This document shows positions 44,541 through 60,310 of a stretch of DNA of 64,000 bases, piece after piece. The DNA is taken from assembly GCA_964016885.1 (NCBI GenBank), contig OZ024741.1, positions 386,136,001 through 386,200,000 on the forward strand. Reading direction: 5' to 3'. The translations under genes were made by a program, and so were the position numbers. Source of the DNA: Eledone cirrhosa (taxonomy: Eukaryota). The number at the start of each line of letters is the position of its first letter. The first letter of the stretch is position 1. The notes under the pieces were generated by a model. It worked only from the letters and a program-made list of their open reading frames with translations, searched no databases and was not told the DNA's origin.

Positions 44541-44915
44541 GGCAGGCTGTTGCTGCCAGGAATGATGTGTGTGTGTGTGGGGGGGGGGGGGTCAGCTGCC
44601 AGGATTGCATGTGTGTATGGGGGGTCAGCTGCCAGGAATGCATGTGTGTGTGTGTGTGTGAGTGGGGGAGATGTAGTAGTGAGTTGAGAAGAACTGTTAG
44701 GGAGTGATAGTGGAAGTGAGGAACATACACACACCCACACACATATGCAAAAGGCAAACAGAAATAACAAAGCAAACGACACAGTACAATGAAGAAATAT
44801 ATTATTAGTTTTACGCTTAGTGGCAAAAAACTGGTAGGTTATATCCATAGTAAGTAGAGCACTCAGTCCAAAGGACGTTTCGGTAGAGATTTAGGTCGAC
44901 AACAAATGGAACTAA

Positions 44916-44940
44916 CTCTCTCTCTCTCTATATATAAATA

Positions 44941-44992
<52 letters not shown>
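44916..44992. repeat. (CT)n/(TG)n/(TA)n microsatellite
   Basis: Direct reading. Confidence 0.9.
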
Positions 44993-44993
<1 letters not shown>

Positions 44994-45286
44994 CTTATAG
45001 CATTTTAAAGGATCCGTCGAGCTGCCGATCATTGAGTCGGGTAGGATCGATACAGATCGAACCTTGAGCTGATCAGTGGTGAAACGCGCGTCACCTACAA
45101 ATAAATGTAATGAAGGAGTAACCAATCGTCCTTGTTATCCTTTCAATATATTACACTCTGTATAGCTCTACACCTCATCACAGAAGTGAACCTAAACATT
45201 GAGTGCTCTCCCAGGTGAACCTGCAGTAACTCCAAGTTACACCCCCTGGATATATATATATACTTAGCATGGCAATAACGTCCTTA

Positions 45287-45287
<1 letters not shown>

Positions 45288-45335
<48 letters not shown>
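45288..45335. repeat. (AAT)16 tract at the 3' end of Tx1-like element 1
   Basis: Direct reading. Confidence 0.95.
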
Positions 45336-45337
<2 letters not shown>

Positions 45338-45584
45338 TTTCATTTATTGGCCACAAGGGCCGACATATAGGGGACAATACAAAAGACTGGGACAGTGGGG
45401 TTTTACAGAAAAGTAACAATAACAAAGTAACAATAAAGTAACAATAAAATTACAACAAGAAAAAATTCCCCAATAGGGGGGATGACCACCTAGGGTTTGC
45501 TCAGGTACCCCACCAGTCCTGAACGACCCGACGCTTCGAGAGCACCCTGGAAGGGCACCCCCTCTCCTCTTCAAATTTACCTAC

Positions 45585-48500
45585 CTACAGCCGCATGACC
45601 AGAGTAGGCCCACTCACACGGGCCATTCTCGCCACATTCACCCACCTTTCAGCAAATGTACTGGGGAGCAGCACTTCTTTCTCCACCCTCACCTTCCTTT
45701 CCAAGTGAAACTTGAAAAAGTTGATGAGGGATTGGCCGAAGAGAAAAGTGTCTGTCTTCAGTCCTTTCAACCTCGTCCACCATCCAACCTCTTTCGCTAC
45801 TGCCACCAGACAGAAGAAAATTGCCTGCCCTTCCTGGCCAAAAGAAGGCCGCGGGTCGATCTTCACTATGGACTCGGCTGATAGCCGGATCCGTTCTACA
45901 CGCGACAGTAGCTGTTCAACATAACTCCACAAGTCAGTAATGCACGGACACTGGACGAGTGCGTGCAGAACGGTTTCGTCGCTCTGCGCGCATCTTGGGC
46001 AGGGCCGTCTGACAGCACTTCCGTGCCTATAGAGTTTATCTCGAACCGGCAGTGCCCCCCGGTAGCACTGCCAAGCGAGGGATTTTTGGAAATTATCCAT
46101 CGTCCCCGGCTCAAAAGTCCTCCGGTACAGACTGGTTAGTTCGACTTCGTTGACTCCCAGAGCCTCTCCGAGTGCATCGTCGCACTTGCCCGCCACTAAT
46201 CTTCTATAGAACTCGAGAGTGGAAGTTCCACTGACCGCATTGCCTGCCTGGTAGAGGGCAGTGAGTGCCTGGCAACATTCCAGATGCCAGTCACCCAGTC
46301 TCGGTCTCTTCTTGACCCAGGACTGCAACTCAGTCAAAGAAACGAGCTGCAGAAAGGCCCGTCTGACAAACGGCGACCACACCTGTTCACCGTTTAGGCA
46401 GAATATCTGGAGATGCCGCAGCCTCAGCGCGTGCCTGCGCATCATTAGCCATGGCATGCCCAGCCCTCCACGTAGAGGGTGCTGGCAGCAGATGGACCGC
46501 CTCACCAGCGGAACCTGACCCCTCCACAAGAATTAGAAGAGGAGCCGCTCCAAGATGGCGAAGCGCAAATGGGGGCAAGGTACGACAGTCAGACGGTAGT
46601 AGATGACGGACGCGATGTACACGTTCGCCACCTCCGCCCGACCTTTTAGTGATAGCTTCATCCCAGCCCATTTCTGGGTGAGAGGTGATTACCCTGCCCA
46701 TCACCTCGTCCCAATTCTTATCCACCTGGAGGTCTGGCCCGAACCAAACCCCTAGCAACTTTACCGGTCCGTCCGTCCAGTGCCTAACGACGCTGTTGGA
46801 CGGCATGGGCTTGCCTCTCCAGGTGCCGAGTTGCAAGCCTACTGACTTTTCCGGGTTAAGTTTTGCTCCCGTCAACCTTTCATATTCCTCCAATAAGTTG
46901 CTGACCACCTCGATTTCTGAGGTGTCTGACACCATCACGGTGATGTCGTCCGCATAAGCCAACACAGCCTTTCCGCGTCCCGGTTCGAGTGAGATGCCCT
47001 GCAACAGCTCCAGCTTCAGCAGTAAAGGCTCAAGAGTCAATACGTACAGAAGGGAGGAGAGAGGGCACCCTTGACGGACCGATCGGGAGATCTGAAACGG
47101 TTCCGAGAGGTGGCCATTAATTTTGACCATCGAGCAGGTGCCGCTGTGCATTGCAGCGATCCAGCTTCTGAAGACGGGGCCGAAGCCAGCCGCCTTGAGG
47201 ACAGCCTCCAGGTACCGATGGTCGACCCTATCGAATGCTTTCGATTGATCTAAATTGATCAGAGCCCCACCGAAGCCAGGTTTACACCCTACCCTCTCTA
47301 TGATGTATCGCATTAGGTGGAGGTTGTCGTGTATGGATCTGGTTGGGATTTCGCAAGTTTGCACCTCCCCAACCAAATCCCTGACGACAAGCGCCAACCT
47401 CTTCGCTAACACCCTGGCCAAAATCTTAAACTCTGTGTTGAGCAGAGTTATGGGCCTGAAATTGTCTAATGTGTCCCTCTTGTTCTCGTCTTTCCTTATC
47501 AGCGTCACTACGCCCCGGCTCACAGAACTGGGAATACTCCCGTTTTGCTGCCAGTTGCAGTAGAAGGCTTCGAGGAGATTGGAGAACAAGTCTGGCATAT
47601 TTACTTAAAGCTCGTAGGGCAGACTATCCAAACCGGGTGACTTGCGCCTCATGCAGCCTACAAGGGCATCCTGAATCTCGGCTCAAGTAATTGGCCTTTC
47701 GCAGCGCCCAGCGTCAGCCGTCGAGAGTTGCGGCAAGCCATCGAGGTAGGGACTAAAGTCCGCCACCATCTCTGACCCGCCACTTCCCCTGAACAACCGG
47801 GCAAAATGTTGGCGAAAGGCCTCACACTTCCGCTTGGAATCGCTCAGCTCCTGCCCGTCTCGGTCCGTCAAAGACCGAATCGTGGTTTTATTACCACGCT
47901 GCGCCTCTGCCACGCGGGCCCATCGAACAGCTTTGGTTCCCTCGTTTCTCAGAGCACGCGCCTTAGCTCTGACAATGCAACCTTCATGTTTCGCATTGAA
48001 GAAATGGTCTAATGCCATTCTCGCCGCTAGCACGTCAGTTGCAATGCCACTACTAATAGCCTCGTCTAACTTATCTACCAACTCCCCCATCCTTTCTATT
48101 TTTCTCTAATGCTACTTCTTTGCTAAACTCTATCGACATTACTCTAATCTCTCTTTTGAGAGCCCCCCACCATCTATTGTTGACGACTCCCCCTGTCAAC
48201 TTTTTCTTAACTAAATTGTTGACCTGGTCCCTGTAAGCCTTACGTGCCGGAAATGACATGTTTAGCTTCCAGTAACCAGGTCCTAACCTACGCGTCTTAT
48301 CTAGGTCGACCATACAGATCACAAACTTGTGATCTGAATAGGCTACCGTTTCAAAACGTGGAGAGCTTACACTATTTCTGTCTATTTTCCTAATGAATAT
48401 CCTGTCTATATACGATCTAGATGACCCTATGCGGTTAGCCCAGGTCCACACTGGCGCATTAGGGAAATCTAGTCAGTACCTGTCAGACAGTTGGAACTGG

Positions 48501-49008
48501 CTGATCAGGTTCTTGAGGCTTTTGCACCCCCGCTCCTATCGGATACTCCCACACAGTCCCAGCGTGCATCCAAGATGCCGTTCCAGTCCCCCGCTAACAG
48601 TAAAGGGCGAGACGTACCCAGAAAGGCTTCCAGGCGTCTAAAGAAATCCGGCCGTCCTGCCCCAGTAGGAGCATAGACGACCACCAGTCTAAAGGCACCA
48701 CCTTCATTATTGTTCTCGTCCAGGACCACCAACTTCCCGTCCGGGTCCCGGAAGATCGACCTTACCTCGAGATCCAGGCCTTTCTTAAACAGCACTGCCA
48801 CCCCACCTCCCATTCCCGGCCGGCTAACAGATGCAAAGATCTGATAGTCGTCGAAAATGGGGCCTAGTGCGCGCGTGTCGGAAATCCTGGTCTCGCTGAC
48901 TGCAATTACATCCATTTCTATAGACCTGAGGTCGTTGAGCAGGTGACCCTGCTTCCAGGACGATCCCAGGCCTCGAACATTTAAACATCCTACTCTTAAT
49001 ACGGCCAT
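45585..49008 (-). pseudogene. Element 1 ORF2: APE endonuclease-reverse transcriptase, with frameshifts and stops
   Basis: APE motifs LNVRGL, SETR, YAP, GDWN, IDRIF, SDH, then GPGYWKLN. RT motifs FRPITLLN, LDQSKAFDRV, RQGCPLS, YADD, LLGVWF. C-terminal CPRC..ETVLHALVQC. Split over ORFs 48505-49008, 48071-48451, 47683-48090, 46387-47598 and 45585-46529. Confidence 0.93.
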
Positions 49009-49039
49009 GTTGGCAGGTTAAACAGAGAGAGAGGAAGGT

Positions 49040-50988
49040 TTACTTACCTTCCGGGCTCTTGTGAAGGTCGGGTTGTTCGACCTCCATAGTTGGTGGGGTT
49101 TCTTTTGGGAACCGCTTTAAAAGTCTTGAAGTGGGTTTTACATTCGGGGTTCTCACGTCCCGAGGAAAGCTGTCTCGTATTTCTTTGAATATGTCGAGCG
49201 ACATTCGCACCAGAACCAAATCTTCCGGCACGCGAAATGTGCTCGATTTAAAAATTTCCCCCTCTTTTTGTATATTTTCACTTCGTGCTATGAGGGCCAT
49301 CAGTTCCTTGTTGGCCCTCCTGACGAGCACGATGTTTTGTATGTTTTGTTGGTGTGATTTTATTTGTTTGCGTGGTTGTGGTGGTGATGGTTTTGGTGGT
49401 GTTTCGGTTGTATCTGTGTTTGTTGTGAGTGCGGTGTCTGTGGTTTCAGATGTTTGTGTGTATATTTGTTCTTGCGTCTGTTTCGGTTGTTTGCGTTGGG
49501 GGATTCTGGCGATGGTGATGGTGATGGTGGTGTTGATGTTGGTGTTATTGGAGAGATGTTTGCGTGGGTGGTGTCTGCGTTTTTTATTGTGGGTGCTTTT
49601 GTGCTTTGTTGAGTTTTTTTTTTTTTTGTGTTTCCTTTTTTGTATTTTGGATTTCCCTCAACTTCACTACTGGTAGATGAGGGGTCTGTGTCTGTAAGTG
49701 TGTCTGTATGTATGTTTAAGGTTTTATTGGTGTGTGTATTTTGGGGGGGGAGGGGGAATATGACAGCTTTCCTAGTTTCTACCATGGGTGGTCAATGTTG
49801 GTGGTGGTCTTTCTATTGGTGTTGTTGTTGGTGGTTTTGTCGGTGCTGGTGTTGGTTGTGGTCCTCGCCCCGGCGTCGGCAGCAGTGGAGCCTTTCGACC
49901 CCTTGCCTCTTTCAGCAGTTGAGGGCAGAAGGCTCACAAATGGGTTTTTTCCCCACAAACAAAACACTGCGGCCTTTTGCCTTCGGTCATAATATGAATG
50001 ACTGTCCCATTCTGAAGGCGGATGTGGTCCGGGATTGTCTTCACATTCTCCAGCTCAACCCCGGACCAGTCCTCTCTGGCCGTTCTGGTCACTTCTATAG
50101 GGACGGTATCCGTCCCCTCCACAATCACACATCCCAGAAGCCACCACATGTCAAGTCCTGGTGGGATTCTGTGAATGCGGAGACGGGCCGTTCTTTTTCC
50201 CATGTGGGAGGGGTACATCATGACCTTGCTGGTTTTGCAAGGAGTCATGGCGTGTTTCATAGCGAGGGCTTCAGACTTGAACAACACCGAAATGGTGCCG
50301 TACTGTCTGCCCCTCTCTATGTACTGGGTGTCTTCTCTGATGCACCTCAGCGCGACTTCGACATCTTCTTGTGGGATTAACGCTGCCCTTTTGGTTTGTG
50401 CTGAGATGCATCTATAATGCACCGTTCTACGCTCCACTGCCTCAATAACTTCTACCGGGACAGTTAAGTTGGCCCAGGTTTGCTCTTGCTTGATGAGCTT
50501 CCATGCCTGGGCCAACTTTTCATCTTTGTTTGAGAGGTCCATGTTGAAGCATGGCCAGTTTTTTGCTGCTGCCGCAGCGAAAGTGGTCTTGTTTTCGTTG
50601 GGGGTGTTGTTGTTAGCACTGTCGCTGTTATTATTGTTGTCTTTGCTGCCACCGTTGTTCTCGGTGCAGTTGGTATTGTTGCTGTTGGTGTTGTCGCTAT
50701 TTGTTTTCATGTTAGTGGTGTTGATATTGCTGTTGTATTTGTTATTTTTTTTTTGTTATCTGTATTTTCGTTGTAGCTGTTACTGTCATTTTTTTTCAAA
50801 TTAGAGTTCTTATTGGTATCATTGGTGTCTTTGTTTACCTTGTTTGTGGTGGTGTTTGTGTTATCAATGTGTGTTAATTTCGCTGTAGCACTCCTCTCAA
50901 CTTCTACGTCGTTGTCGCACGACAGCAGACATATCGCTGGGGGGCGTGGCTCAGCTATGTTTTTTTTTCTTCGTAAATTTTTTAACAT
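49040..50988 (-). pseudogene. Element 1 ORF1 (gag-like nucleic-acid-binding protein), disrupted
   Basis: Asn/Thr-rich N-terminus, a core homologous to element 2 (RGRQYGTISVLF), a CX2CX4HX4C knuckle CFVCGEKTHL*AFC at 49925-49966 with an internal TGA, and a Pro/Thr-rich C-terminus. Confidence 0.8.
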
Positions 50989-51164
50989 GTAAAAAAAAGT
51001 TCAAATATTTGGGCCAAAAGGCCCAAATATTATACTTTCCCCTTCACGGGGCAAAGTCTAAGGGCTTATATCCCTTACACAACGAGAAATATTTAACAAC
51101 AAATAATTTAAACAGGCAAATAAAGCGATTTACTGTGAGCGAGCAAAATACGTCCGCTTAGACC

Positions 51165-51182
51165 AATAATAATAATAATAAT
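51165..51182. repeat. (AAT)6 junction between the two Tx1-like elements
   Basis: Direct reading. Confidence 0.95.
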
Positions 51183-51424
51183 GATTTCTTTATTAACCAC
51201 AAGGGTTTACATAAAGTAGACATTAAGGTCAGTACAGGACAATACAGGACGGTACAAATGGGCATTTCTGCGTGTAAAAAAACAGAGGATGTAATAAAAA
51301 AATAACAACGAAAAACTCCCCAATAGGGGGGAGACTTCCGAGGGACATTTGTGGAGAAAGCCTATTAAAAGGCCACAGTGACCCTGACCACCAGCGCAAG
51401 TGCCCTCTCCCAGTTTTCCACCTT

Positions 51425-54400
51425 TAATTTACAGATACATACTCGGGCCATTCTTGCTTCTCTCACCCATCTTTCAACAAAATGCTGGGAAGAGAGCACT
51501 TCCCTCTCTACCCTGATTTTCCTTTTCAAATGAAATTTGAAAAAGTTAATCAGGGCATCACCGTCTTCAGCTCTTTCAAACGTGTCCACCATACTATCTC
51601 TTTCGCCATGGCCACCAGACAGATAAAAACTGCCTGCCCTTCCCGGCTAAAGGAAGAGGGCGGTGCAATCCTACGATGGACTCAGCTGATAGCTGGATCC
51701 GTCCTACACATGACAGCAGGTGTTCGACATAAACCCACAAGTCAGCAATGCTCGGACACTGGACGAGTGCGTGCAGGACGGTTTCGTCGCTCTGTGCGCA
51801 TCTCCATGCCTGTAGAGTTAATCCCGAACTGGCAAAGCTCCTCGGTAGCACTGCCAGGCCAGGGATTTCTGGAAGTTGTCCATAGGCCCCGGCCCGAAAG
51901 TCCTTCCGTAGAGATTGGCTAGTTGATTTTCGTCGACGCCTAGAGTTTCTCCAAGTACGTCGTCGCTCTTCCCCTCCACTAATCCTCTATAGAACGCCAA
52001 GGTGGAGTTTCCACCGATCACATTGCCCGATTGGTCGAGGGCTGTGAGCGCCTGAAGACATTCCAGTGTCCAAGTGCTCCCTCTCGGTCTTCGCTTGACC
52101 CAGGACTGCAGCTCCGTCAAGGATACGAGCTAGGGAAAGACGTGTCTAGCAAACGGCGACCACACCTGATCACCGTCGAGGAAGAGGTAGAGATGTCGTA
52201 GCCTGAGCGTGTGTCTGCGCATCATCAGCAGCGGCATGCCCAGCCCTCTACGTAGCGAGTGTTGACAGCAGATGGACCGCCTGACCATCGGAGCGCATCC
52301 CTTCCACAAAAAGCGAAAGAGCAAACGCTCCAGCGCAGTCAGGCGGGGCTTAAGACAAGGTACGACGGTCAGACGGTAGTAGATGACGGACGCAATGTAC
52401 GCGTTAGCCACCTCCGCTCGACCTTTCAGGGATAGCTTCCTCTCCGCCCATTTCTGGGTGAGAGAAGCCACCCTGCTCGTCACCTCGTCCCAGTTTTTGT
52501 CCGTCTGGAGGTCCGGACCGAACCAGACCCCTAGCAATTTAACCGTCCGTCCGTCCAGCGCCCGACGACGCTGTTGGACGGCATGGACCTGCCTCTCCAG
52601 GTGCCGAGCTGCAGGCCCACTGACTTTTCCTGGTTGATCATTGCTCCTGTCACCGCTTCGTATTCTCTTAGTGTAGTGCCGATTGCCTCGATGTGTTTGG
52701 CGTTCGACACCACTACGGTGACATCGTCCGCATATGCTGACACGGATCATCCGCATCCTAGTTCGCGCGGGACCCCCCTCAACGTCTCCAGTTTGTGCAG
52801 TAATGGCTCGAGAGTCAATACGTACAAGAGGGACGAGAGGGGACATCCTCGACGGACCGAGCGCATGATGTTGAACGGTTCCGAAAGGTGACCGTTCACT
52901 CTCACCACATAGCAGATGTCGCTGTGCATGGCAGCGATCCAGCCTCTGAAGACGGGCCCAAAGCCAGCCGCCCTCAGGACTGCCGCTAGGTAATAATGGT
53001 CGACCCTATCGAAAGCTTTCGACTGATCTAAATTGATCAAGGACCCACCCATGCCAGGTTCCCTAGCTACCCTCTCTACGATGTATCGCATGAGGTGGAG
53101 GTTGTCGGGAATGGCGCATGTCTGCGCCTCTCCCACCAGACCACCAACGACAAGCGCCAACCTCTTTGCTAGCACCTTGGCCAAAATCTTGAACTCTGTG
53201 TTTAGCAGAGTTATGGGCCTGAAATTATCTATGTTATTCCCCTTGTTCGGATCCTTTCTCAGCAGCGCCACAGCTCCTCGGCTCACAGAGCTGGGAATTC
53301 TCCCGTCCTGTTGCCAATTACAGTAGACATCCGCCAAGAGGCCTCCGAACAAGTCTGGCATCTGAACGTAAAGTTCATAGGGCAGACCATCCAAACCAGG
53401 CGATTTACCCCTTGTGCAGCCAGTCATTGCCTCCCGTACTTCAGCGGCTGTTATCGGTTTTTCGCAACACTCCGCCTCAGTGGCTGAGAGCTGCGGCAGT
53501 CCGTCAAAGTAGACACTAAAGTCCATCCCTCGATCTGGCCCGCCGCTGCTCCCGAACAGCTGTGCGAAATGTCGCTGAAAAGCTTCACACATTTACCCGG
53601 GATCGAGTAGCATGTGCCCGTCGTGGTTCACCAAAGACCGGATCGTCGCTTTGTTGCCACGACGCGCCTCCGCCACTCGGGCCCATTGAACGGCTTTTGT
53701 CCCCTCGTGTCTGAGAGCACGCACCCTAGCTCTGACAACGCAGCCTTCGTGCTTTGCATTGAAGAATTGGTCAAGGGCCAATTTCGCCGCAAGTACGTCT
53801 GTCGCGATGCCTTTCCTAAGCGCCTCGTCTAATTTTCTAACTAGTTCTCCCTTTGCTCTATTTTTTTTCTCTATTGCTAAAGCCTTACTAAACCTAATGG
53901 ACTCTATTCTAATCGCTCTTTTCAGAGCAAACCATCACTTGTTGTTGACGATGGCCCCCGTCAACGCCCGCTTAACTAGTTCGCTAATCCGGTCTCTGTA
54001 GGCCTTGCGCGCTGGTAAGGACGCGTTTAGCTTCCAGTAGCCGGGTCCTCGTCTATGAAGCCTATCTAAGTCAAGCACACATATCACGAATTTGTGGTCC
54101 GTGTAGCTGACTATCTTGAATTGTGGACAGCCTATGCTAGACCTTTCTATTTCCCTACAAAATACTCTATCTAGATATGATCTGGATGACCCTATGCGAT
54201 TTGTCCAAGTCCACATTGGCACATTCGGGAAATCCAATCGGTACCTGTCAGACAGTTCAAAACGCCTGAGCAGGTTGGTGAGGCTCTTACACCCTCCTCC
54301 CCTATCCGCTAATCCCACACAGTCCCAGCGTGCATCTAAGATCCCGTTCCAGTCGCCCACTAACACTAAAGAGCGGGACGTTCCAAGAAAGGTCTCCAGA

Positions 54401-54775
54401 CGCCGGAAGAAATCAGGCCGCCCTGCTCCTGTCGGGGCATAGACGGCCACTAGCCTGAAAGCTTGCCCGTCTCCGCTGGTCACGTCTAACACCACCAACT
54501 TACCTTCTGGTTCCAGGAAGATGGCCCGTATGGCGAGATCCAAACCTCTCCGAAAAAGAACAGCAACTCCTCCCCCCCGATCCAGGACGGCTGGGAGATG
54601 CGTACACATCGTAGCCGCCGAAGATCGGTGCGAAGGCCCATGCCTCGGAGATTCTGGTCTCGCTGATGGCCACTACATCTATGTTTAGTGACCTGAGGTC
54701 GTTTAGCAGGTGGCCCTGCTTCCATGACGACCCCAAGCCACGCGCATTTATGCTGCCTATTCTGAGGGAGGTCAT
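51425..54775 (-). pseudogene. Element 2 ORF2: APE-RT, with frameshifts and small deletions (3' boundary approximate)
   Basis: MTSLRIGSINARGL, SETR, YAP, GDWN, TDHKFV, KSPGLDGLPYE, FRPITLLN, LDQSKAFDRV, GCPLS, AYADD, CAQSDETVLHALVQC. Confidence 0.92.
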
Positions 54776-54809
54776 GTTGAAATGGAGTGGAAAAGATGGG
54801 AAAGACCAC

Positions 54810-56737
54810 TCACCTTACTTCTCGTAGAGGAAGGATGGTTTCTCCATCCTTTTCACTGCTTGTGGCCTCCTCAGGAAGGATGTCCTTATAAATCCTCCTG
54901 GAGAGTGATTGTCGGAAGTCTCCGATGACTTTGGGGAATTTTTGTTTTAGTGTCGTGTACGTTTTCTGTGTGATGCGAGTGATTTGTATGTGTGGAGGCG
55001 GTGTGAACTTTGGGGTTGTTGTGTAGTCTTTTTCTGTGATGCTGGTGTTGTGTTGGATGTAGTGTAATAATTGGGTGTTGTTCAAATTTAATGCTGTGTA
55101 GTGTGTATCGTTTTGGTTGTTTTGTTTTGTTTGCGTTTGTTGTGGGTTTGTTTCTGTTTCGCTTTTTGGTGACTTTTGTGGTGTTGGAGATGGTGGTGTT
55201 GGGGTTAATGATGGTGATGGTGTTGGTGTTTGTGGTGATGGGGTTGGTGATGCTGGTGTGGATGGTGGCATATCTGTCCTAACTTTTTTGTTTGATAGTT
55301 TATTTGTTTCCCTCTGTATTTTGTTTTTGGAGGGGGTGGGAAGAGAATGTTTTCTTTTTTGGTTTCTTTTTTTCTTTTTTCCTGATACCGTTTCCCACTC
55401 CTCATCGTCACAATCTGTCTCCAGTTGTGATAGGCCGGGGAGTGGAAAATCCTCCACAGGCGTTGGTTTTGGTTGTGGCGTGGTGGATGGTGTAGGCGCT
55501 GGTGCTAGTTCTGGCGCGTTGGGTGGTGTTGGTGTTGGTTTTGCTACTGTTGCTGGGGTTGTTGCTGTTACAGTTGCTTCTGTTGTTGCTGCTACAATTG
55601 TTGCTGCCATCTCTGCTGCTGGTGGTGTTGATGGTTGAGTCACTGGGGTGGGTAAGAGAGGTGGCCTCAACCTTTTAACCTGAGGGCAGAAAGCCCTTGG
55701 ATGGGTTCCTTCACCACAAATGACACACCTAGGCCTTCTGCCCTCTACGATTACGGTGAGGTGGCTGCCGTCAGTGAGGTCTATTACCTCTGGGATCTCC
55801 TCAATGCTTTTTTTGGTCCACTTGGATCAGGAGCTCCATCCCAGATCCGGACCAGTTCTCCTGCTTTTCTTTCGCTATTTCGATTATCTTGGTGTTGGCT
55901 TCGATGCCGGCGAGGACGGCAGCTATTAGCCAGGGAATTTCGATGGCCGGTGGAACGTGCGTCACCTTGATCTTCACGAGTCTCTGGCTACAATAGCTTG
56001 GGACGAGTGTGAAGTCGTCACTTCTTAATGTGGCCATGGAGTGTTCTCTGGCCTCCTGTGGTGTTTCAAAGAACACGTCCACGGTTCCATATTTCTGCCC
56101 ACGTCTGATGTGGGTTTTTTTTTGCCCACACATGTCCCAAAGCTTTTTGGATTTGGGACTCGGATGCCCGTTCCACTTGGCGCGATTTTATGCTAATCGT
56201 CCGATAAGACACGGTGCATAGGCGCCGATGCTCCATTTTATTAGGGGGGAGGCTGACCCTGTAACCATCTTTCTTTACCATTTGTTTGGCTTCTTCTAAT
56301 TCCTCTTGAGTTACCTGGAATGCTTCGCACTGTTTTGCTACTCTGGCAAAACTCAGGGTGGTTTTCTTAATTTCATTGTTGCTGTTGGTGTTGGTGTTAT
56401 CGTTATTTTTGTTATTGTTAATTTTAGTTTCAGTTGTGGTGGTGGTGGCGTCAGTGGTGTTCGGTGTGGAAGAGTTCATTTTGGTTGAATTCATTTCGAT
56501 ATCACGAGTTAATTTATTTTTTTCTTTTGTTTCTGTTGTCGCTGTGATGGTGGTGGGGGTGGCGGCTTTAACACCTGCAGTCATTGGTAATGGCGGGAAA
56601 TGAATGTCTGCCTGAGACAAATTTAAAATATTGCTACTGCTTATATTTTTAGTGTTGGCAAACGTAGTAATATTTACAATGGTGGTGTCGGTGTGAGGTG
56701 TTAGTTTGTGAGGAAGGTGTGACTCTGAGTCGGCCAT
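54810..56737 (-). pseudogene. Element 2 ORF1 (gag-like), frameshifted
   Basis: Thr/Asn-rich N-terminus, RGQKYGTVDVFF core, intact knuckle CVICGEGTHPRAFC at 55686-55727, Pro-rich region and a basic patch KKKKRNQKRK. Confidence 0.8.
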
Positions 56738-56956
56738 GATTTTTCAAAGAAATTTTTTTTTTGTTTGATAATTATAAAAAGTTTAAATTTTGGGCTCAAG
56801 GCCCCAATCTTTTTGAGTGTCCTTTTCAGAAATCAATGTATGTGCACTTATATACAGTTAACAATAAACATTTTTCATAAATGGCAATTTTAAACAACTG
56901 AAAATAAAAAAACCTTTGCGGAGCTCACGATGATACGATTTACTATGTAGGTCGCC

Positions 56957-56974
56957 AATAATAATAATAATAAT
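56957..56974. repeat. (AAT)6 tract at the 5' end of element 2
   Basis: Direct reading. Confidence 0.95.
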
Positions 56975-57121
56975 GAAATTATTGTGTACAGTGCTCAGGT
57001 GCACTACAACTCATCAAAGGTGCATGTATAGTACATAGAATAATGTACAAATGTCAGAAAAGTGAACAGTGTATGAGCCATGATATACATGTGAAAATGC
57101 ACAACATATTGAAACTAAAAT

Positions 57122-57568
57122 TTATTTATTCTGCGAAACATAATCTCCATTGAATTCAATAACATCTTTACAGTGCTTATGCAAAACATTTAACTCTTTC
57201 TGGAACTGTTCATTCGGCAATCGTTGAAATCAGTGCAACGATTCATCCACAACTTTTCTTTGTTTATTCCATTTCTCTGTTTATCCCAGTAATATGTGCA
57301 ATGCAACACAATGATTGTTTTGGTTCTGCATCAATGACACTTTGAATGGGTGAATAGTGGTTGTGCAAGGATGGCCAGAATGAGGAACATCAATAAGTGA
57401 TGAGCTACTGCCATTTTTGAATTGTTTCACCCAATGATAAATGGTTGAATTCGCTGGAACATTGTTAATTCCACTCTCCTTTAATTGTGCAATAATATTC
57501 GTTGCTCATTTGCCTCGTTTCCATTCAATGAAAACGTATGCTCTAAAATTTTCTTGACTTAAATCCAT
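57122..57568 (-). mobile_element. Internally deleted mariner transposase remnant
   Basis: Manual translation gives MDLSQENFRAYVFIEWKRG..., then VPANSTIYHWVKQFKNGSSSSLIDVPHSGHP (mariner HTH and RSGRP-like linker), joined to C-terminal ...HCKDVIEFNGDYVSQNK*. The catalytic core is absent. Confidence 0.75.
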
Positions 57569-58035: not shown

Positions 58036-58466
58036 CTGGTGGCTGTTGAAGTGTTGGCTGTAGTTGTGACCTTTATAATGTGGTGTTGGCTTTAGTTGTG
58101 TAGTAGTGGCTGTCATAATGTAGTGTTGGCTGTAGTGGTGGTTGTTATAGAGTAGTGTTGGCTGTAGTTGTGTAGTTGTGGTTGTTATAGTGTAGTGTTG
58201 GCTGTAGTGGTGGCTGTTATAGTGTAGTGTTGGCTTTAGTTGTGTAGTAGTGGCTGTCATACTGTAGTGTTGGCTGTAGTGGTGGTTGTTATAGAGTAGT
58301 GTTGGCTGTAGTTGTGTAGTGGTGGTTGTTATAGTGTAGTGTTGACTGTAGTTGTGGCTGTTATAGAGTAGTGTTGGCTGTAGTTGTGTAGTGGTGGTTG
58401 TTATAGTGTATTGTTGACTGTAGTTGTGTAGTGGTTGTTGTTATAGTGTAGTGTTGGCTGTAGTCG
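58036..58466. repeat. GT-rich minisatellite of alternating 32- and 40-bp monomers (72-bp dimer)
   Basis: The GTGTTGRC anchor recurs at 58051, 58083, 58123, 58155, 58195, 58227, 58267, 58299, 58339 and 58371. Confidence 0.9.
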
Positions 58467-58844
58467 TTTAATGGTGGTAACTATATTTACAACAGTTAAA
58501 TTAATTTAATGATGCTTTCATTAACCATTCCTTTACTAATATTATATATTAACGAGAATAAAGGGCAGTGGATTGGCAGAATTGTTAGAGCATTGGACAT
58601 ATCCCATCGAAGTAAATTTTGCCTTTCATCCTTGTCATGTACTAGGATCAATATAATTGACTTTCCCTTCCCCTCAAACTGCTAAATTATATATGGAAAT
58701 GACTGACAACTTCCCAGACCTCATGTGCTTATCATATGCGGTGGAATTTGTTAAATCAGACCAAAGAATCAATGTTTCCATTGGTCTTTTCGTTGCTGAT
58801 ACTATCAACCAGTCACACCACCTAGCAAAAAGAGCAACATGAAA

Positions 58845-59292: not shown

Positions 59293-60110
59293 ATGAGCAA
59301 GGTACTATTACGACGGCCACGTCTGCCGACTCGGAAGCCTGTAGTGGTTTACTTGACGAAAAATAATTCGAAACCTGGGGTGAAAGAACAGACCATCTCT
59401 GAATTTGCGAAGTACAAAAAACTGCCTCCACTCAGCTCTCTTCATAATGAAACAGAAAATCAACAAGTAAAAGAAAAGCAGTTACCCAGCCTTTCTAATA
59501 ATGAAGTTGAGCAGAAATTGCAAAAGTTTAAAGTAAGAGTGAAGAAATTAGAATTGGAGGAAGATTTTGACAATAGCTATAAGAAAGAACTAAAATCAAA
59601 GTCCATAAGTGATTCTGGCATTTGTAAACAGATCCCCAGTCTAATTTCCAGTTGTAATGGAGCAATGGCAAGTAGCTCTTTGCTAGCCAAACTACACGAG
59701 GAAGAAAGCAAGATACCGGAATTGATGGTTCCTGGGATCAATGCACTTATTTTACAAACATCACAAATGTCGAAGGTACCAGTTGAAAAAGCAAAATCTA
59801 TTGTTTATTCTCGAAACACTTATAAAAAAATTACTCAGCTCCTTGTTGAGAAATATATGAAACATACTATAGATCAAGAAAGAGCTCACGTAGTTCGAAT
59901 CCCAACTGAATATCTTGGTGAATATCATAGACGTGTACCACAGAGACAGCTGATTATTGAAATAGCTGCAATTCTTAAAGAACATATTAAAGAAGCTATG
60001 AATATCAACATGCAGACTGTTTTTCAATCAGTGCCTAAATACCAGTTTGGATCAAAGGAAAAACCAATCACTGAAATTATCCTTTATCAGAAGCCTGAAG
60101 ATAAAGAAAA
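59293..60110 (+). CDS. Probable first coding exon of an unidentified host gene
   Basis: Uninterrupted, non-repetitive ORF 59275-60150 with ATG at 59293. Upstream acceptor TTCCTCCTGTTTATTTCAG (AG at 59258-59259). Candidate donor AA|GTACGT at 60111. No transposon motifs recognised. Confidence 0.65.
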
Positions 60111-60310
60111 GTACGTAGAGTTTCCGTTTTATTTGTCTTACCAACAATGAAAGTGGACAATATGTTATAGTTTAATCCTTTAGTTGAGTTGATCGAAACT
60201 GTTACAATTATGATCATTCATTTTATTTGTATATTGAGGTTTACATTGTCCAACATGTTCTGTTTTATCTTGAGATGGTATAATGTGATTTGAGAGAACT
60301 TTAGCTGCTA

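Follow-up and report, generated by a model that had tools for sequence, protein, structure and literature searches.

A conserved 5' splice-site motif at the ORF1/ORF2 boundary of Tx1-like LINEs in Eledone cirrhosa and its possible role in producing an ORF1-only mRNA

Long interspersed elements (LINEs) are thought to rely on a single bicistronic RNA for both of their open reading frames, ORF1 and ORF2, and splicing is regarded mainly as a liability (PMC5860796). In human L1, splicing has been described as giving the ORF2-only RNAs known as SpORF2 (PMC2896524) and the dead-end RNAs known as SpIREs (PMC5860796). In plant Ty1/copia elements, such as EVD of Arabidopsis, a conserved 5' splice site (donor) yields a short gag mRNA, and the donor also counters premature termination (PMC5580714). 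Here, a conserved donor motif is described at the boundary between ORF1 and ORF2 of two full-length L1-group LINEs with a Tx1-like architecture, which lie head to tail on the minus strand (element 2, 56956-51183; element 1, 51164-45336) with (ATT)6 between them. Both are contained in a 64,000-nt stretch of the 2,996-Mb genome of Eledone cirrhosa (assembly GCA_964016885.1, contig OZ024741.1, positions 386,136,001 to 386,200,000), hereafter the window. Minus-strand coordinates are given in the direction of the elements.

Similarly to EVD, these LINEs carry a conserved U1-type donor at the boundary between the structural and the enzymatic gene, which in EVD sets the product ratio (PMC5580714). 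However, EVD is a long terminal repeat (LTR) element with one ORF, a short intron and early termination, all experimentally demonstrated, whereas the elements described here are two-ORF LINEs with an intron of about 3.5 kb predicted from sequence. Splice sites in the RNA of an L1-group element, here predicted, are shared with human L1 SpORF2 and SpIREs; in those cases the 5' untranslated region (UTR) and ORF1 are removed and genomic copies are left, whereas here the donor is at the end of ORF1 and is conserved across families, and no spliced copies were detected. The HAL1 (half-L1) elements are ORF1-only, non-autonomous genomic families (PMC5753468), comparable to the ORF1-only mRNA proposed here as derivatives of an L1-group element. 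In contrast to HAL1, the junction searches of this genome revealed neither a genomic family joined at this donor nor copies of the SpIRE or HAL1 type with the precise donor junction. Kibi and Koshi, microsatellite targeters of the Tx1 clade (PMC4494074), are also LINEs with an apurinic endonuclease (APE) and a reverse transcriptase (RT) that enter simple repeats, although their target is not the (ATT)n used here, and the passages of that paper dealing with them do not mention a conserved donor. The Drosophila element TART is likewise a non-LTR element with introns (here predicted) and head-to-tail arrays, although the TART introns are in antisense RNA (PMC1636488). In Octopus vulgaris, 13 recently active L1-Tx1 families have been annotated in an article whose main text does not contain the string "splic" (PMC13282606).

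The end of ORF1 in each element carries a near-perfect 5' splice site where the original prediction had placed it: AAG/GTAAGT in element 1 (49050-49042, GT at 49047-49046) and AAG/GTGAGT in element 2 (54816-54808, GT at 54813-54812). The GTGAGT form is present in the window copy of element 2, but its G at 54811 is private, the form of the family being GTAAGT. Only three matches to AGGTRAGT were found in the 64-kb window, the third at 54503 within ORF2, and donor-type motifs elsewhere in the element bodies amount to 0.0044 matches per 80 nt, so the placement of the donors is more than chance. The genome contains 10,786 matches to a degenerate pattern for the ORF2 start. In an unfiltered listing of 32 loci (the first 30 and two others), [A/C]G/GTA[A/G]GT was located 40-54 nt upstream of the ORF2 start in 30, and the other two were one-base variants; a set chosen for diversity showed the donor in 22 of 24 members, with T/GTAAGT and CAG/GTAATT in the remaining two. 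The main branches share 63-73% of their ORF2 DNA sequence, and a site of the [A/C]G/GTA[A/G]GT type was identified at the ORF1 end of all 15 family representatives. Among these, G-1, G+1, T+2, A+3 and T+6 were invariant (15/15), G+5 was kept in 14, position +4 was A or G, and the flanks varied; the search expression for the representatives contained positions -1 to +2, positions -2, +5 and +6 being outside it. As a control, invariant fourfold-degenerate sites in ORF2 numbered only 24 of 119 over 14 families, a count from which L082 was omitted, as it was from the tree.

Codon phases 0, 1 and 2 are all represented among the donors. Phase 2, in which ORF1 ends in R-stop, is found in most families, including family 2, to which element 2 belongs; phase 1 (GK-stop) occurs in family 1, that of element 1, and in L079 and L087; and phase 0 occurs in the L080 family, whose ORF1 continues 12 codons past the donor. 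A few single copies deviate in phase through private frameshifts. Part of this survey took only elements with a donor match, the unfiltered donor counts being those of the separate listings above. The motif, its conservation and its independence of the reading frame are direct observations, and constraint on the protein or the stop codon does not account for conservation in three phases. Since the donor is conserved in all phases while few synonymous sites are invariant, selection is likely to act on it at the RNA level, as on a U1 site; the 5' splice site of a U2-type intron, matching the U1 consensus and conserved, is present. An alternative would be a motif unrelated to U1, acting as a termination/reinitiation signal or kept as an inherited accident. 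Phase-2 families indeed have a stop codon inside the motif, and in the L080 family ORF2 lacks an ATG, so coupling signals would be expected nearby. However, the motif is kept wherever the stop falls, whether within the motif, upstream of it, downstream of it or 12 codons downstream, and the only variation is A or G at +4, a change that U1 pairing tolerates; this alternative is considered very unlikely. As a separate observation, long open ORF2 frames without an ORF2 ATG were seen in L080 (4060-4076) and also in L076, L088, L096 and L098; in the L080 type, an ATA overlaps the ORF1 TAG (A-TAG), suggesting AUG-independent reinitiation.

Distant relatives, with about 40% ORF2 protein identity, were found in tandem arrays in record CAXXMW01. 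This GTDB record (loci L138-L176), titled as an uncultured Arenicella metagenome-assembled genome, carries intact eukaryote-type LINE arrays and is evidently a case of host contamination. In this lineage, AAG/GTAAGT is located 1 nt past the ORF1 stop (GAG TAA G/GTAAGT) and 13 nt before the ORF2 ATG, and thus outside any codon; all 72 occurrences in overlapping loci are unspliced. Moreover, two of the three distant ORF1 proteins of the type of this genome that reach the C-terminus end in EGKS or QGK, an imprint of phase 1. Judging from this distribution, the donor is old, and the idea that it would be shared by related families held strongly, both in the 15 family representatives and in the distant lineage. 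A second donor-like site is present shortly after the ORF2 stop in all eight distant-lineage copies inspected, family L174 included, and about 240 nt past it the 3' UTR contains a TAG with a pyrimidine tract that is one of the two best-ranked among about 260 AGs in six of seven subfamily copies. The second donor and the strong acceptor delimit a predicted 3'-UTR intron of 140-240 nt (about 8483 and 8730 in L150; about 4535 and 4675 in L174), which occurs even in L174, where the ORF1-end donor is absent. L174, the one family without that donor, also has a TAATG-like stop/start overlap at about 1020-1034. No relative was found among the viral contigs searched.

A candidate 3' splice site with a pyrimidine tract is present in the distant lineage, but it is not conserved across the families of this genome. 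The original prediction had ORF2 excised exactly in both elements, from the donor to a CAG closing a U-rich tract in the 3' UTR. The CAGs are located as predicted (45389-45387 in element 1, 51270-51268 in element 2), and both new C-terminal tails translate as proposed. The predicted intervals, of 3,661 and 3,546 nt, do span ORF2, but they overshoot the ORF2 stops (45587-45585 and 51431-51429) by about 200 and 160 nt, and the AG-free tract before the CAG, long in element 1 (103 nt), is shorter in element 2 (48 nt). With a generic matrix, the CAG of element 2 ranks first among the 267 AGs of its element, and its AG is kept in all 16 family-2 copies matched and in L072 and L082; in addition, family 2 is the one with TAA, not TAG, at the ORF2 stop. 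These results favor the CAGs as designed acceptors of both elements. Nevertheless, the CAG of element 1 ranks only 49th of 275 AGs, and at the homologous position L079 and L085 have CTG and the 3' end of L004 has GTG, while the CAG of element 2 is CAC in the sister family L081/L087. The two acceptors are, by eye, at non-homologous positions. Between the 3' hairpin and AATAAA, AG is absent from four of 14 families, and another five contain nothing but GAG or a TAG 7 nt ahead of AATAAA; L084, whose copy has no poly(A) signal, was left out of this count. No genomic copies with these junctions were found either. The CAGs did not stand as a shared acceptor design, and this exact model appears highly improbable. 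The two predicted C-termini are unlikely to be a general feature because the CAGs are not shared among families, although the element 2 junction is plausible for its own branch only. A simpler reading of the U-rich tract is a poly(A) upstream element. Folding of the element 1 3' UTR gave a z of -1.15. Among the copies compared, L004 is a mosaic carrying the 3' end of a sister family, and L072-type copies (L043/L048/L072) join the family-2 ORF2 to another ORF1 end.

The ORF2 stop offers another candidate acceptor. Of the 15 representatives, 13 end ORF2 with TAG, after which a G and a stretch rich in purines come in most cases; in the window copy of element 1 (TAG/G, 45587-45585) this AG ranks 30th of 275. 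When the donor is joined to the ORF2 stop, a stop codon follows within three codons in the donor's own phase in 9 of 13 families, compared with 5 of 26 in other phases, and all five non-phase-2 families show an early stop; the end of ORF1 would be nearly unchanged by such a joint. The TAG/GTRA at the ORF2 stop may also be a decayed second donor, which in element 1 would read AG/GTAGGT. A wider proposal, possible if doubtful, is that this whole LINE lineage, distributed among distant hosts, expresses its genes in a retrovirus- or copia-like manner, in which a donor at each ORF end and a shared 3' acceptor would give two spliced products, one mRNA for ORF1 only and one trimmed but still bicistronic, with only unspliced RNA being copied into the genome. 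The intron of most families here would then extend from the ORF1 stop to the ORF2 stop and restore an ORF1 C-terminus that is almost unchanged (R-stop to R-stop, or EGK-stop to EGR-stop).

The general idea of an ORF1-only spliced mRNA is the most likely, although unproven, use of the donor. The explanation favored here, tentatively, is the removal of ORF2 by splicing from the donor to an acceptor that drifts at the 3' end. In this view, the 5' splice site that this (ATT)n-targeting L1-group lineage keeps, in near-perfect form, between ORF1 and ORF2 would be bound by the U1 small nuclear ribonucleoprotein (snRNP). A share of the transcripts would lose ORF2 by splicing to an acceptor close to the 3' end and act as ORF1-only mRNA, and those left unspliced would be used for ORF2 translation and for retrotransposition. 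The acceptor would not be fixed: in the distant lineage it would be a strong TAG of the 3' UTR, in most families of this genome probably the TAG/G of ORF2, and in family 2 perhaps the CAG. A junction located at the stop codon would avoid nonsense-mediated decay. Furthermore, ORF2p of the L1 group acts in cis, so spliced RNA, having no ORF2, would rarely be copied; the ORF1-only mRNA survives the lack of spliced genomic copies because such RNA would have no ORF2p in cis.

Several observations weigh against this ORF2-removing splicing. In human L1, splicing reduces mobility (PMC5860796). The ORF1-end donor is missing from L174 in the distant lineage, as it is from all ten relatives at a greater distance for which upstream sequence was available. 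The aligned bodies contain no strong acceptor that is conserved; their best AG column has a mean of 1.8 bits and lies inside ORF2, and the ORF2-stop AG averages -0.7 bits, with TAA in its place in family 2. The 9 of 13 families with an early own-phase stop correspond to about two independent changes; family 2, in phase 2, has an early phase-1 stop as well, and TAG/GTRA alone yields a phase-2 stop. Finally, the precisely spliced genomic copies of about 2.2 kb expected by the original prediction did not appear: with any junction tried, none was found in family 1 against 483 unspliced copies, nor in family 2 against 1,303. None was found in further families, a result without denominators that does not extend to a junction at the ORF2 stop in the L090 and L087 families. 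The junction exclusion patterns, with one excluded base and a trailing filter, sample part of the possible acceptors, and exact patterns were applied where the filter could hide the predicted junction.

These genomic junction searches exclude a non-autonomous spliced family and an intron fusing ORF1 to ORF2. The latter would be a mini-intron of 39-66 nt that starts at the donor, ends at an AG in ORF2 codon 4-5 and joins both frames through xAG/A in phase-2 families and through AGAG/T in family 1. However, its length is very short and variable, the L087 (phase 1) and L080 (phase 0) families have no nearby in-frame AG, and a fused RNA would retrotranspose in cis, yet 0 of 45 family-2 matches show the fusion; this extremely unlikely candidate was rejected. 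Junction-like matches, three in one search and two in another, were chance 14-15-mers. An apparent junction at G000:C5:103262778 was a 26-nt patch within another repeat; this patch (L197, 3270-3296; G000:C5:103262770) is identical to the family-2 ORF1 end, terminates in AAG/GT and looks like a templated insertion. In contigs of four runs of unrecorded kind, covering 44800-57500, no joint at either donor was present among the 15 listed of 1,223 joints. Contigs of one run, also of unrecorded kind, on 48450-49360 showed three joints, none at the donor, and none of the six loose ends listed out of 20 was at the donor. Among the contigs of this run, a 576-nt contig of a sister family crosses the donor unspliced at a depth of 21.4, and a 558-nt ORF1-side contig with a depth of 191.4 ends at 49062, which is a lead only, as contig depth cannot rank the parts of a gene. 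No transcript-derived alternative ORF1 C-terminus was detected in the ORF1 searches.

A fixed donor with an unfixed acceptor, together with the lack of spliced copies, also fits a donor that is bound by U1 snRNP and rarely spliced, guarding full-length RNA from premature cleavage and polyadenylation or controlling nuclear retention. The second donor-like site after the ORF2 stop, found in all eight distant-lineage copies including L174, is consistent with this role, which U1 plays in Arabidopsis EVD (PMC5580714). However, ORF2, which follows the donor, has few A[A/T]TAAA signals (0.39 per kb) compared with ORF1, which precedes it (1.87 per kb), so there would be little for U1 to guard, and the distant lineage has retained a strong 3'-UTR acceptor; a role of U1 binding by itself seems rather doubtful. 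The missing copies would also be accounted for if the donor were spliced to acceptors inside ORF2 with early termination, as in EVD, or to acceptors beyond the element, since the product would have no 3' end and never be copied. A few ORF2 AGs with modest scores, at offsets of about 120, 452, 567 and 1877 from the donor, are present in 14-16 of 16 representatives, but they are weak and within conserved codons, and ORF2 contains few poly(A) signals; splicing to such sites is quite unlikely.

Regarding the elements themselves, both window copies are full-length but decayed, being disrupted by stops and frameshifts, and the donor regions of families 1 and 2 have 483 and 1,303 exact copies in the genome, respectively. 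Element 2 is preceded by (ATT)n (56974-56957) and comprises a broken ORF1 (56737-54810), whose family stop TAA at 54812-54810 is TGA in the window copy, a pyrimidine-rich, AG-free inter-ORF spacer (54807-54776), a broken ORF2 encoding an APE endonuclease and an RT and ending in TAA (54775-51429), and AATAAA at 51194-51189. Its (ATT)n tail (51182-51165) is the target of element 1, which in turn contains a broken ORF1 ending in E-G-K-stop (50710-49040), a spacer that is also pyrimidine-rich and AG-free (49039-49009), a broken ORF2 with APE endonuclease, RT and zf-RVT domains (49008-45585), AATAAA at 45348-45343 and an (ATT)16 tail/target (45335-45288). In L094, the ORF2 matched PF03372, PF00078 and PF13966 above cut-off, and pieces of these domains occur in the window elements; the best PDB match of ORF2 was human L1 ORF2p (E 4e-52), and R2 was matched with E 3e-23. 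The separate upstream ORF1 is 450-690 residues long in these families, and zf-CCHC was above cut-off in the ORF1 of L150, below it in L080 and L077, and absent in L009. With this ORF2 domain set and a separate upstream ORF1, the elements are L1-group non-LTR retrotransposons, and the label "Tx1-like" fits their architecture, on which it rests. Target preference, common though not universal in the Tx1 clade, is present: among 20 copies examined of each family, (ATT)n preceded 17/17 (family 1) and 15/15 (family 2) of the 5' ends found. Families land in one another's (ATT)n or (ATCT)n tails, forming mixed head-to-tail arrays with a spacing of about 5.7-5.9 kb (window 51182-51165; L094-L100).

The rest of the window includes a G/T-skewed satellite of 21 bp from position 1 to about 43,050, at least 43 kb long, whose long poly-Thr/Val frames are not evidence of genes. 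A 72/144-bp minisatellite upstream of element 2 (58050-58478) and a plus-strand ORF of 285 residues without a Pfam match (59293-60150) were also observed.

A literature search judged by titles and abstract openings, with most subscription papers, Repbase reports and supplements outside its scope, revealed no earlier description of a donor conserved at the ORF1 end of LINEs. The feature is real and probably unreported. The donor half of the original prediction is strongly supported, and its half concerning the acceptors and the spliced copies is not. Conservation of the donor across three reading-frame phases and down to about 40% ORF2 identity indicates that this lineage relies on either the spliceosome or U1, and either dependence would be new for LINEs in the searchable literature. 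In addition, the thousands of strong donors that the 10,786 ORF2-start matches imply for this genome bear on the exonisation of host genes.

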